From assembly GCF_053078305.1 (NCBI RefSeq), contig NZ_CP166879.1: a stretch of 64,000 nt of DNA; one strand, written 5' to 3'. The notes under the pieces are model-generated. The model saw nothing but the letters and a program-made list of their open reading frames with translations, did not search any database and was not told where the DNA came from. Below, one piece after another: positions 19,604 through 23,227 of this stretch. Within the stretch, counting starts at the first letter, position 1. The number at the start of each line of letters is the position of its first letter. A program made the translations under genes and the position numbers.

Positions 19604-20779
19604 ATGCGTCTGTTTTCTGTTCCCCCACCCACGCTACTGGCGGGGTTTCTGGCGGTATTAATTGGCTACGCCAGTTCAGCGGCAATAATCTGGCAAGCAG
19701 CGATTGTCGCCGGAGCCACCACTGCACAAATCTCTGGCTGGATGACGGCGCTGGGGCTGGCAATGGGCGTCAGTACGCTGACTCTGACATTATGGTATCG
19801 CGTACCTGTTCTCACCGCATGGTCAACGCCTGGCGCGGCTTTGTTGGTCACCGGATTGCAGGGACTAACACTTAACGAAGCCATCGGCGTTTTTATTGTC
19901 ACCAACGCGTTAATAGTCCTCTGCGGCATAACGGGACTCTTTGCTCGTCTGATGCGCATTATTCCGCACTCGCTTGCGGCGGCAATGCTTGCCGGGATTT
20001 TATTACGCTTTGGTTTACAGGCGTTTGCCAGTCTGGACGGTCAATTTACGTTGTGTGGAAGTATGTTGCTGGTATGGCTGGCAACCAAGGCCGTTGCGCC
20101 GCGCTATGCGGTAATTGCCGCGATGATTATTGGGATCGTGATCGTTATCGCGCAAGGTGACGTTGTCACAACTGATGTTGTCTTTAAACCCGTTCTCCCC
20201 ACTTATATTACCCCTGATTTTTCGTTTGCTCACAGCCTGAGCGTTGCACTCCCCCTTTTTCTGGTGACGATGGCATCGCAAAACGCACCGGGTATCGCAG
20301 CAATGAAAGCAGCCGGGTATTCGGCTCCTGTTTCGCCATTAATTGTATTTACTGGATTGCTGGCACTGGTTTTTTCCCCTTTCGGCGTTTATTCCGTCGG
20401 TATTGCGGCAATCACCGCGGCTATTTGCCAAAGCCCGGAAGCGCATCCGGATAAAGATCAACGTTGGCTGGCAGCTGCCGTTGCAGGCATTTTTTATTTG
20501 ATCGCAGGTCTGTTTGGTAGTGCTATTACCGGGATGATGGCTGCCCTGCCCGTAAGTTGGATCCAGATGCTGGCAGGTCTGGCGCTGTTAAGTACCATTA
20601 GCGGCAGTTTGTATCAGGCGCTGCATAATGAGCGTGAGCGAGACGCGGCGGTGGTGGCATTTCTGGTAACGGCAAGTGGATTGACGCTGGTCGGGATTGG
20701 TTCTGCGTTCTGGGGATTAATTGCCGGAGGCGTTTGTTACGTGGTGTTGAATTTAATCGCTGACAGAAACCGATATTGA
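19604..20779 (+). CDS. ydcO: BenE-family inner-membrane transporter
   Basis: ORF 19481..20779; start set at ATG 19604 (MRLFSVPPPTLLAGF) preceded by gaggtg SD; 391 aa, polytopic. Confidence 0.85.
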   Translation: MRLFSVPPPTLLAGFLAVLIGYASSAAIIWQAAIVAGATTAQISGWMTALGLAMGVSTLTLTLWYRVPVLTAWSTPGAALLVTGLQGLTLNEAIGVFIVTNALIVLCGITGLFARLMRIIPHSLAAAMLAGILLRFGLQAFASLDGQFTLCGSMLLVWLATKAVAPRYAVIAAMIIGIVIVIAQGDVVTTDVVFKPVLPTYITPDFSFAHSLSVALPLFLVTMASQNAPGIAAMKAAGYSAPVSPLIVFTGLLALVFSPFGVYSVGIAAITAAICQSPEAHPDKDQRWLAAAVAGIFYLIAGLFGSAITGMMAALPVSWIQMLAGLALLSTISGSLYQALHNERERDAAVVAFLVTASGLTLVGIGSAFWGLIAGGVCYVVLNLIADRNRY

Positions 20780-22525
20780 CATCCTCCACGCCCTGAAGGA
20801 CGTGGATCCCTGCTACGTTCAGGCTGTCGCCTGAATCATTTCGGTGGGTTCCTGCTTCAACGGGCGGCCTGACTGCACCATCTCTCCACAGGCAAGAACG
20901 GCGTGCCCCGCCGCTAAAATGTTACGAGCGCCATTTACATCGGCGTTCGCTGTATATCCACATACCTGGCATCTGAATTTACTTTGTGACAGGCGGTTCT
21001 CTTTCGCTGTATGACCACAGTACGCGCAACGCTGGCTTGTATACGCTGGCGGAACAGCAAGCACCTGACCGCCACGCCAGAGCTGCTTGTACTCAAGCTG
21101 GCGGCGCATTTCATACCAGCCCTGATCCAGTATCGAACGGTTTAAACCTGATTTTGCCCGGACATTGCGCCCCGGCTGGCTGACCGTACCCGCTGCTGAC
21201 TTTGACATGTTGCTGACCTTCAAATCCTCAATGACTATCATTGCGTGGTTTTTGCTGACGGCCGTTGTGACTTTGTGAAGGTAGTCCCTGCGGATATTTG
21301 CGATACAGGAATGCAGTCGCTGTATTTTGCGTTTCTGCTTCTGCCAGTTGTTGCTGAATTTGACCTTGCGGCTTAACTGTCGCTGAAGTCTCGCCAGCGT
21401 CTTCTGGTTTTTCTGAAAACTGTTTACAGGCTCAAAGACTGTGCCATCTGACAGCGTGGCGAGTTTAGCCACGCCAGCATCCAGCCCGACCATTGATGCT
21501 GAAGGGTGAGCCGGAGTGGATACTTCACTTTCTGTCTGAATACTGATGTACCACTTACCGCAGGACTGGCTGACAGTGACATTTTTCACAACACCCGTGA
21601 CCTGACGGCTATTCCGGTAGCGCATCCAGCCCAGTTTCGGCAGAAAAATACGGCTGTTTTCCTGATCGAGCTTAACGCCCTGCGGGTAGCGGAATGCATC
21701 ATTCTGTCCCCGCTTTTTGAATCGGGGAAAAGCAGCCCGCTTCCGGAAGAAGTTTTTGTAAGCCCGCTCAAGGTCTTTCAGTGACTGTTGCAATGGCTGT
21801 GAGGGAGAATCTTTAAGCCATTGCGTTTCAGTGGCATTTTTCCACTCAACCAGCCAGGAAGCCATTTTCCCGTAAGGGATGTATTTATTACCGGCCTCAT
21901 GATTCTCATTCTGACGTGCCAGAGCACGATTGAAAACGAAACGACATGCGCCTGCGAAGCGCCTCATTTCACACTCCTGTTGACCACCTGGTCTTAACTG
22001 GAATTTAAATGCCTGTAATCGTTTCACAGGTCAAATGATACTTTGGTCTGTGAAAAAAGAAACCGATATCCGGCGTGGAAGGCATTGTGTTTTCCTGATG
22101 CATGTTCACCTGGTCTTTGTCACCAGATACCGACGCCAGATTTTTGACCATGACGCGACAGAAAAACTACGCACTTACTTTTCAAATGTATGTGCTTATT
22201 TTGAAGCTGAACTGGTTGAAATGGATGGCGAACCAGATCACGTCCATTTGTTAATTAACTAACCTCCCAAACTGGCGATATCCAGTCTGGTAAACAGCCT
22301 CAAAGGCGTATCGGGTAGGTTACTGCGACGAGATCGACCAGATATTGCAGTCAGGTATTACTACAAAGGCGTTTTGTGGAGTCCTGGCTATTTTGCCAGT
22401 AGCTGCGGAGGTGCGCCAATATCCGCCATCCGTCAATACATTGAACAACAGCAAACACCTGGTCAGGTGGAAAACCGCGCCTTATATCCCCGCCCTGAAG
22501 GATGGGGTTTTACGGCGCACCGGAT
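20780..22525 (-). mobile_element. IS200/IS605-family insertion sequence (IS609-like), tnpA and tnpB divergent
   Basis: Divergent tnpB (20819..22027) and tnpA (22035..); subterminal imperfect hairpins sharing loop ccctgaagga near both ends (20785..20806 and about 22485..22505); no terminal inverted repeats, as expected for this family; boundaries approximate. Confidence 0.75.
20819..22027 (-). CDS. tnpB: TnpB (IS605 OrfB-family RNA-guided nuclease, OMEGA effector)
   Basis: 402-aa ORF; Ruv[17 protein letters not shown], Ruv[11 protein letters not shown], zinc finger CAYCGH...CQVCGY, Ruv[14 protein letters not shown] all present; N-terminus [13 protein letters not shown] typical of TnpB. Confidence 0.9.
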
Positions 22526-22541
22526 AAAAAGCGCCATCTAA
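22035..22541 (+). pseudogene. tnpA: IS200-type Y1 (HUH) transposase TnpA interrupted by in-frame TAA
   Basis: N-terminal 75 aa ends ...EPDHVHLLIN then TAA at 22260..22262; the same frame continues PPKLAISSLVNSLKGVSGRLLRR...SPGYFASSCGGAPISAIRQYIEQQQ, matching the TnpA C-terminal half; 3' boundary uncertain. Confidence 0.75.
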
Positions 22542-22550
22542 CGATGGCGC
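22526..22550 (-). terminator. Intrinsic terminator of ydcL
   Basis: gcgccatc-gtta-gatggcgc hairpin followed by T5 on minus strand, 9 bp after ydcL stop. Confidence 0.6.
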
Positions 22551-22558
22551 GTCTGGAA

Positions 22559-23227
22559 CTACTTTTTGTTAACGTCAAACATGGTGGCATCGGTCGCCAT
22601 GTCATCAATAACTTGTTTAATATTTTCGAAAGCCATTGGCGTACTTTCGTTATTCAGGTCTTTACCTTCGCCCTGACGAACGACTTTGATAACCGGTTTA
22701 TTAGTCGCTGCATCAATCAGCTCACCTTCAAAATAGAGGCGAGTATCCATGGTACGGTGGCCTGTAGCCATTTGCGTCCCCGCAACCACTAATGCAACAG
22801 GAACCACTTCATAGAATTGCAGCCCTTCTTTGCTGGTATCTACACCGGTAATGGCCCCACGGAAAATCAGACTACGCGGCCCAGCGGTGGTAACCACTGG
22901 TTTACGCTGCGCTATCGCTTCTTTCATTTCGGTGTTGGTATAGTTCAAAATTTTATCCAGAACTTTCTGCCCTACCTGGGTAGAAGGTTTTGGTACCGGA
23001 TAATAAGTGATTGGGTTCCAGACGATGCTGTCATATTTGCTTTGATCAAAACTCGGGTCTACCCAACGTAAAACAGGTTTACCTGTTGCTGAGGTTGTTT
23101 CTTTTAAATCAGAGTAATTGTTTAAAAAACCAGAATATTTATCTGGCTGGGTGATTTTAGAGGCACAACCAGACAGAGCCAACAAGCCGCATAAAGCTGC
23201 AACTTTCGCAAATGATGTGGTACGCAT
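22559..23227 (-). CDS. ydcL: Lipoprotein YdcL
   Basis: 222-aa ORF; lipobox LALSGC after signal peptide. Confidence 0.88.
   Translation of the reverse strand: MRTTSFAKVAALCGLLALSGCASKITQPDKYSGFLNNYSDLKETTSATGKPVLRWVDPSFDQSKYDSIVWNPITYYPVPKPSTQVGQKVLDKILNYTNTEMKEAIAQRKPVVTTAGPRSLIFRGAITGVDTSKEGLQFYEVVPVALVVAGTQMATGHRTMDTRLYFEGELIDAATNKPVIKVVRQGEGKDLNNESTPMAFENIKQVIDDMATDATMFDVNKK

Follow-up and report, generated by a model that had tools for sequence, protein, structure and literature searches.

The right end of IS609 beside ydcO in Escherichia coli: a probable TnpB guide-RNA scaffold with a guide predicted from the ydcO 3' end

Insertion sequences (ISs) of the IS200/IS605 family carry tnpB genes for RNA-guided nucleases, and the copy of IS609 that lies between ydcO and ydcL in Escherichia coli raises the question of whether its tnpB 3' end and right end encode a guide RNA, and of what that RNA would direct the nuclease to. 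We analysed the copy in a 64,000-nucleotide stretch of DNA (the window; NCBI RefSeq assembly GCF_053078305.1, contig NZ_CP166879.1), whose coordinates are used throughout and whose convergent ydcO (plus strand) and ydcL (minus strand, 23227..22559) genes, with IS609 between them, mark the locus as E. coli chromosome. An earlier reading of the letters alone (the original prediction) had placed a TnpB omega-RNA at 20764..20950, with a guide from the last codons of ydcO. We find that this interval, which takes in 12 nt of the guide and the whole conserved scaffold, is the IS609 right end together with the tnpB 3' end, and that it probably encodes the scaffold of a TnpB guide RNA (omega-RNA, or right-end element RNA), with a ribonucleoprotein function that would follow by analogy with the family. 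The transcription, processing and cleavage that this reading entails we infer from the family.

The scaffold and the element boundary

The right end of the element falls between 20775 and 20776, 43 nt beyond the tnpB stop, a boundary fixed by an empty-site allele, by three other E. coli insertion sites and by 66 relatives. With slashes marking junctions, the empty-site allele (L001) reads ...AACCGATA/ATAAAAAGCGCC..., and the occupied allele reads ...AACCGATA followed by TTGACATCC...CACCGG and then ATAAAAAGCGCC, a comparison that reveals no target-site duplication. The termini TTGACATCC...CACCGG are identical at the three other E. coli insertions, which lie in a TetR gene (L002) and in a DUF3251 gene (SadB-YajI lipoprotein; L003/L004), and ATAAA follows CACCGG in each. 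On the minus strand the right-end junction is ...GGAGGAUGUCAA/UAUCGGUUUCUGUCAG, and the 66 related elements of other genera end in ...GAGGATGTCAA or a variant differing by one or two bases (GAGGA[T/C/A]G[T/C]CAA), after which the flank is unrelated. The IS200/IS605 element that had been predicted is IS609, which in the tnpB orientation reads 5'-TTTAT/CCGGTGCGCC...GGAGGATGTCAA/TATCGGTTTCTGTCAGCG-3' (window 22523..20776, preceded by the target motif, 22528..22524). The scaffold described below is encoded by the tnpB 3' end and the right end and stops exactly at 20776, beside the variable flank.

The structure of the scaffold was derived from relatives. A scan of genome contigs gave 80 loci in Gamma- and Betaproteobacteria with TnpB proteins 58-94% identical to that of the window, and the last 160 nt of 42 elements made up the structure alignment, in which RNAalifold finds six helices (H1-H6, Table 1) with compensatory, both-side changes at 16 of the 25 pairs. 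Pairing holds in 97.4% of cells, against 44-56% when the partners are slid by one to three columns, and double changes occupy 99 cells as against 25 in shuffled alignments; none of 500 shuffles matches any of these measures. The right-end hairpin singled out by the original prediction (H6) is present and stands in the same register in the 42 elements, with compensatory changes in seven of its nine pairs, so it is not a product of chance. One pair of H2 is U.G in 41 of the 42 sequences and would be A.C on the opposite strand, which argues for an RNA of the minus strand, and H5 surrounds a further hairpin (20836-20818) that spans the tnpB stop codon. A covariance-model search, which had been proposed as a check, bears this out: a model built from 28 relatives outside Escherichia has a single match in the 64-kb window, full length and on the minus strand at 20776..20895 (126.3 bits, E about 1e-34), and this match defines the core of the scaffold. 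Folded singly, the 130-nt scaffold reaches no significance in minimum free energy (z -1.7), and the case for structure is therefore made by covariation; the fold of a 205-nt region gives z -3.7. Candidate unpaired blocks of the scaffold are invariant and yield no covariation signal.

The same pairing might instead be read as a signal in DNA, comprising a single-stranded hairpin recognised by TnpA and coding constraint on the TnpB C-terminus, with no RNA structure involved. H6 is indeed the subterminal hairpin expected for TnpA, a near-identical hairpin is found at the left end, and H1-H3 and part of H5 lie within the tnpB reading frame. However, H1, H3 and H5, at distances of 30-135 nt from the end, lack a left-end counterpart and so are not explained by TnpA recognition of a DNA hairpin, and their double changes exchange GC with CG and AU with GC in 6-15 sequences per pair. 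The region is, moreover, one that has served experimentally as a guide-RNA scaffold in the family (PMC12781874). We consider a DNA-only explanation highly improbable.

That published scaffold permits a direct comparison. The 'IS609' TnpB of PMC12781874 comes from a metagenomic relative and was purified; the value 94.279 beside it in Table S1 is read here as percent identity to IS609. In Table S3 of that paper an 'IS609 omega-RNA scaffold', 207 nt long, ends ...GGAGGAUGUCAA, and Table S2 gives a target with the transposon-associated motif (TAM) TTAT and a 20-nt guide. Window positions 20776..20982, read on the minus strand, are collinear with the published scaffold, ungapped and 83% identical to it, and finish on the same end base. 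Together with the covarying structure and the covariance-model match, this upholds the placement of an omega-RNA on the minus strand at the tnpB 3' end and right end.

TnpB, its guide and the fate of the transposase

The tnpB gene (insQ) is intact, and RefSeq labels its product 'RNA-guided endonuclease InsQ/TnpB family protein'. Residues 3-372 align with ISDra2 TnpB (PDB 8BF8/8EXA/8H1J) with an E value of 2.7e-55, the RuvC triad D183/E267/D363 (codons at 21479-81, 21227-29 and 20939-41) stands opposite ISDra2 D191/E278/D361, and both zinc-finger CxxC pairs are kept (C334/C337 and C353/C356), as had been claimed from the translation. Pfam finds HTH_OrfB_IS605, OrfB_IS605 and the Cas12f1-like TNB zinc ribbon in the protein, and against the NCBIfam model NF040570 guided_TnpB, whose cut-off is 100 bits, it reaches 380.6. 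A domesticated, nuclease-dead TnpB of the TldR-like kind was considered and ruled out, the RuvC triad being intact.

As predicted, the 3' end of ydcO is the flank that would specify the guide, which would start at 20775, immediately past the boundary. The corresponding positions in NZ_CP152466.1, a K-12-type record, are 1504312 for the last base of the right end and 1504313-1504332 for the guide. Its predicted sequence is 5'-UAUCGGUUUCUGUCAG-3' (16 nt, 20775..20760), or 20 nt with a further CGAU (to 20756); it is complementary to the final codons of ydcO and shows no polymorphism in 11 occupied alleles, namely that of the window and those of 10 genomes picked across the identity range (L085-L094). 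We compared window positions 20600-22700 with 5426 complete E. coli genomes by megablast. The order ydcO-insQ-tnpA-ydcL is found in 4307 of them, some others have no element between ydcO and ydcL, and 978 carry the complete 45-nt empty junction GGCGCTTTTTAT/TATCGG..., O157:H7 strains and ATCC 11775 among them. Read along the minus strand, the junction is GGCGCTTTTTAT/TATCGGTTTCTGTCAGCG, with the 16-20 nt that match the guide directly 3' of TTTAT. The predicted DNA target with its TAM is TTTAT+TATCGGTTTCTGTCAG, also written TTTAT+TATCGGTTTCTGTCAGCGAT, and within the window TAM plus guide is approached only by the resident site, where TCAA replaces TTAT. Both the occupied and the empty allele segregate in E. 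coli populations, and the latter matches the predicted TAM and guide perfectly.

The mechanism established for TnpB is reportedly owed to Karvelis 2021, Altae-Tran 2021, Meers 2023 and Nety 2023. Applied to this locus, it would begin with a minus-strand transcript that runs through tnpB and beyond the right end and is bound by TnpB, and that would be cut or trimmed to the scaffold and a guide of about 16-20 nt. The resulting ribonucleoprotein would cleave DNA in which 5'-TTAT precedes the guide sequence, that is, the unoccupied allele, and is proposed to spare the occupied allele, since GTCAA rather than TTAT precedes the target there. A transposon-retention ('homing') model of TnpB and IscB is said to have been put forward by Meers et al. 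in 2023 for IS elements of Geobacillus. The likeness to that model is close, in that the guide is the right-end flank and the TAM coincides with the left-end target motif of TnpA, such that the ribonucleoprotein would recognise the empty or excised site; the relation between guide and empty site is exactly what the model would expect, as a relation of sequences rather than as evidence of cutting. The difference is that TnpA is inactive at the window locus and excision cannot make the substrate, so that the sole natural substrate would be an empty allele acquired by horizontal transfer.

The loss of tnpA (insP) is not confined to the window. An intact orthologue of 143 amino acids is found in L002, an O157 copy, where it scores 146 bits against the NF033573 transpos_IS200 cut-off of 55 and is thereby a Y1 (HuH) transposase, and RefSeq calls the window gene 'IS200/IS605 family transposase'. 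At the ydcO locus, by contrast, tnpA is inactivated in 11 of 11 occupied alleles, by four distinct lesions. Four alleles, that of the window included, have TAT>TAA at 22262 (Y76*), and K-12-type alleles have TTA>TGA at 22321 (L96*); the remaining lesions are deletions of 1 bp at 22076 and of 5 bp at 22146-22150, and L088 bears two of the four. Since tnpA is a pseudogene, no excision is expected at the window locus, and no new IS609 insertion arose in K-12 mutation-accumulation lines (PMC5009759). IS609 at ydcO is immobile, with its nuclease gene and guide scaffold retained: the full 1209-bp tnpB reading frame is present in all 11 alleles. Among 40 polymorphic tnpB codons, 16 have synonymous changes only and 24 change the amino acid, with a mean ratio of nonsynonymous to synonymous polymorphism (pN/pS) of 0.33, a result suggestive of selection on tnpB from a small sample and a crude test.

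Several observations weigh against a working ribonucleoprotein at this site. The searchable literature yielded no transcript, ribonucleoprotein or cleavage data for IS609 at ydcO and nothing on activity of E. coli InsQ, a simple sigma-70 consensus scan found no promoter-like site on the minus strand of 20500..22700, and a terminator scan found none past the guide. Converging transcription of ydcO would be fully antisense to the omega-RNA, and with tnpA dead and the element static in the K-12 lines (PMC5009759) the ribonucleoprotein would be without a resident substrate. The IS609-type TnpB was one of nine screened for trans-cleavage in PMC12781874 and not the highlighted active one. A pN/pS of 0.33 represents constraint relaxed relative to typical core genes, and H3 contains an A.C mismatch in the window allele (20883/20863). 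As a mark of decay of that allele the mismatch was rejected, the same base being carried by L002 with its intact tnpA.

Much of this could be accommodated by a silent relic, built like an omega-RNA locus but with tnpB unexpressed or the protein-RNA pair inactive, its intact reading frame reflecting a short time since fixation. The pseudogene in every sampled allele, the absence of movement in the K-12 lines, the failure to find a promoter-like site or expression data, and the amino-acid changes at 24 of the 40 polymorphic codons all suit such a relic. It fits less well with the absence of any inactivating lesion from the 1209-bp tnpB in 11 alleles against four distinct ones in the 432-bp tnpA of the same genomes, with a pN/pS that is not about 1, with the retention of all catalytic and zinc-binding residues, or with only 4 segregating sites in the 160-nt scaffold against 42 in the whole 1209-bp tnpB. 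We judge the relic to be the less likely account, though it is the alternative to which we give the most weight, and we favour a scaffold that serves, by family analogy, as the guide RNA of an active TnpB.

Element ends and the host genes

The coordinates of the element and its parts are collected in Table 1.

Table 1. Features of the IS609 copy at the ydcO locus, in window coordinates
Feature	Position	Strand	Remarks
IS609, complete, 1748 bp	20776..22523	minus (tnpB strand)	left end 22523, right end 20776
tnpB (insQ), 402 aa, 1209 bp, intact	20819..22027	minus	predicted RNA-guided nuclease gene
tnpA (insP) pseudogene, Y1 transposase	22035..22466	plus	divergent from tnpB; in-frame TAA 22260-22262 (Y76*)
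Conserved omega-RNA scaffold, helices H1-H6	20776..20911	minus	predicted, from covariation
H1	5' arm 20911-20909; 3' arm 20903-20901	minus	
H2	5' arm 20892-20888; 3' arm 20855-20851	minus	
H3	5' arm 20884-20882; 3' arm 20864-20862	minus	
H4	5' arm 20844-20843; 3' arm 20810-20809	minus	
H5	5' arm 20839-20837; 3' arm 20817-20815	minus	
H6, subterminal right-end hairpin, 9 bp, 4-nt loop	20785..20806 (5' arm 20806-20798; 3' arm 20793-20785)	minus	guide-proximal stem; as single-stranded DNA, presumed TnpA recognition hairpin
Predicted guide segment	20756..20775	minus	first bases past the right-end boundary
Left end	22488..22523	minus	16 nt (22523..22508), then subterminal hairpin 22507..22488
Left-end-adjacent target motif/TAM, 5'-TTTAT-3' (core TTAT)	22524..22528	minus	in the T-tract of the ydcL terminator
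ydcO stop codon TGA	20777..20779	plus	provided by the IS609 right end

The boundary has a consequence for ydcO. The original prediction had the tnpB 3' end and subterminal hairpin abutting the ydcO stop codon; the position given for the stop is correct, but the codon lies inside IS609. The empty-site ydcO ends CGA TAA (..DRNR*) and the occupied allele ends CGA TAT TGA (..DRNRY*). Alignment of window 20774-20779 with positions 471-476 of the empty-site allele assigns T20776 and TGA to the element, so that, the boundary falling where it does, both the stop and the third base of the last Tyr codon belong to IS609 and YdcO gains one residue, in K-12-type strains as well. On its other side the element is inserted in the T-tract of the intrinsic terminator of ydcL (hairpin 22550..22531; GCGCCATCGTTAGATGGCGC TTTTTAT/), with the hairpin and T-run unbroken on the ydcL side, and IS609 cuts ydcO off from direct access to this terminator region.

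These relations invite the idea that the structure acts on the host gene, either through read-through from tnpB and the right end as an RNA antisense to the ydcO 3' end or through the hairpin as a processing or termination signal for ydcO. ydcO has lost the shared terminator region to the insertion and takes its stop codon from IS609, and minus-strand read-through would be perfectly complementary to the end of the ydcO mRNA. Against this, the plus strand has no T-tract after the hairpin, and the structure recurs in 66 elements whose flanks are unrelated, which ties it to the IS and not to ydcO. We give a role in regulating ydcO very little credence and retain the reading of the structure as a guide-RNA scaffold.

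The ends are those of an IS200/IS605 element. The subterminal hairpins at the two ends (22507..22488 and 20806..20785) lie on the same minus strand and have a common core, TCCTTCAGGGCG, there are no terminal inverted repeats, and TTTAT stands directly 5' of the left end at all four E. coli sites, indicating insertion at a fixed motif. Among relatives, whose elements are 1747-1749 bp long, the left ends were found by local alignment (L005-L084), a strict pattern having matched two loci only, and the left-end-adjacent motif is TTTAT or TTTAC in most close relatives, with TTGAT also occurring. In most of these close relatives the last base of the motif covaries with the base 5' of the foot of the left-end hairpin (T with A, ..TAAAA-CCCC; C with G, ..TAAAG-CCCC), L005 being an exception; this fits the IS608-type rule by which TnpA would read its cleavage site through DNA base pairing. 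Unlike the left-end motif, the right-end terminus and RNA 3' end GGAGGATGTCAA is near-invariant among relatives, with variants of one or two bases at some loci.

Some further observations concern tnpA and the distribution of the element. Just 7 bp (22028-22034) separate the divergent starts of tnpA and tnpB, so the promoters of each must sit within the coding sequence of the other; the simple sigma-70 scan gave no candidate site. The TAG stop of the 143-residue TnpA is CAG (22464-66) in all ydcO-locus alleles and in L003, and the tnpA frame consequently continues across the left-end hairpin to 22541. The copy at another chromosomal site (L003/L004) shares the nonsense mutation Y76* (..LLIN*PPKL..) with the window allele, which suggests gene conversion between the copies or, alternatively, mobilisation in trans by a different TnpA. 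The megablast comparison also places the same 1.75-kb element at further E. coli loci, one of which is labelled IS609 in its record. Among the close relatives, all others of which are from Enterobacterales, one 2057-bp contig labelled Streptomyces mutabilis (L016, NZ_BMTT01000064.1) carries an IS609-like tnpB with 81% identity and looks like assembly contamination.

Relation to known systems and significance

The element is IS609 of the IS200/IS605 family, ordinary and already catalogued: the IS609 of ISfinder (E. coli insP/insQ, formerly ydcM) is the same element as the window copy, which differs from the catalogued system, as compared, in its dead tnpA. Another close point of comparison, the TnpB-omega-RNA system of ISDra2 from Deinococcus radiodurans, resembles IS609 in protein architecture, in the RuvC D/E/D residues and in the zinc finger, and its guide RNA overlaps the tnpB 3' end, as the predicted one of IS609 does. 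The guide-proximal hairpin and terminal motif are also alike (...GAAUCACGCGACUUUAGUCGUGUGAGGUUCAA in ISDra2, ...GGAUCCACGUCCUUCAGGGCGUGGAGGAUGUCAA in IS609), and the ISDra2 scaffold tabulated in PMC12781874 has a homologous guide-proximal hairpin and a ...GAGGUUCAA terminus. The two differ in TAM (TTGAT in ISDra2, TTAT/TTTAT in IS609) and in the divergent arrangement of tnpA and tnpB in IS609, and the upstream part of the ISDra2 scaffold is scarcely alignable with that of IS609.

A search of Rfam returned no family at threshold, only near-matches that all lie on the minus strand within 20766..20946: RAGATH-18 (RF03064; 25.4 bits against a gathering score of 44.9, E 0.096), HgcC (RF00062; 22.2 bits against 50, E 0.03) and sot0042 (RF02656; 17.0 bits against 88, E 0.2). 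These matches are resemblance only and not family membership. The module in common is CCUGUGGAG...UGAAGCAGGAA (helix H2), and HgcC and sot0042 have the terminal hairpin CCCCGCCCUUCAGGGCGGGG in common. The sot RNAs are sense transcripts overlapping tnpB genes of the IS1341 type at their 3' ends in archaea, and sot0042 we take to be such a tnpB-3' RNA family. RNAs derived from RAGATH-18 guide IS607 TnpBs, and RAGATH-18 is the core of a TnpB guide RNA (PMC11061315). Three Rfam families of different stated types give sub-threshold matches at one TnpB guide-RNA region, and Rfam 15 appears to be without a model for this clade of IS605-type omega-RNAs.

The discovery value of the locus is small. NCBI already names insQ an RNA-guided endonuclease, a scaffold and TAM of the IS609 type are in print, and the derivation of the guide from the flank is a textbook rule. 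Already known are the element, the type of RNA, how far that RNA extends and the TAM, and only the chromosomal guide is undescribed in searchable papers; the scaffold of PMC12781874, being that of a relative, was used with synthetic guides, and neither the ydcO guide nor the native empty-junction target is described there. What is gained is that boundary, TAM, guide and helices are now defined to the base at a locus found in most E. coli, K-12-type strains included, which makes the activity of a native TnpB testable.

A further and bolder suggestion concerns why IS609 without a working tnpA persists in about 80% of E. coli. The insertion might act as a self-guarding allele, with TnpB and its omega-RNA cutting the empty allele when it enters by conjugation or transduction; the empty target that this would require is carried by about 18% of strains. 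We think this improbable. If it were true, recombination would be biased toward keeping and spreading the insertion, the locus would form a local barrier to allele replacement, and tnpB would be selected independently of transposition. The repeated decay of tnpA beside an intact tnpB provides, in any case, a small natural data set on what sustains TnpB after its transposase is lost.

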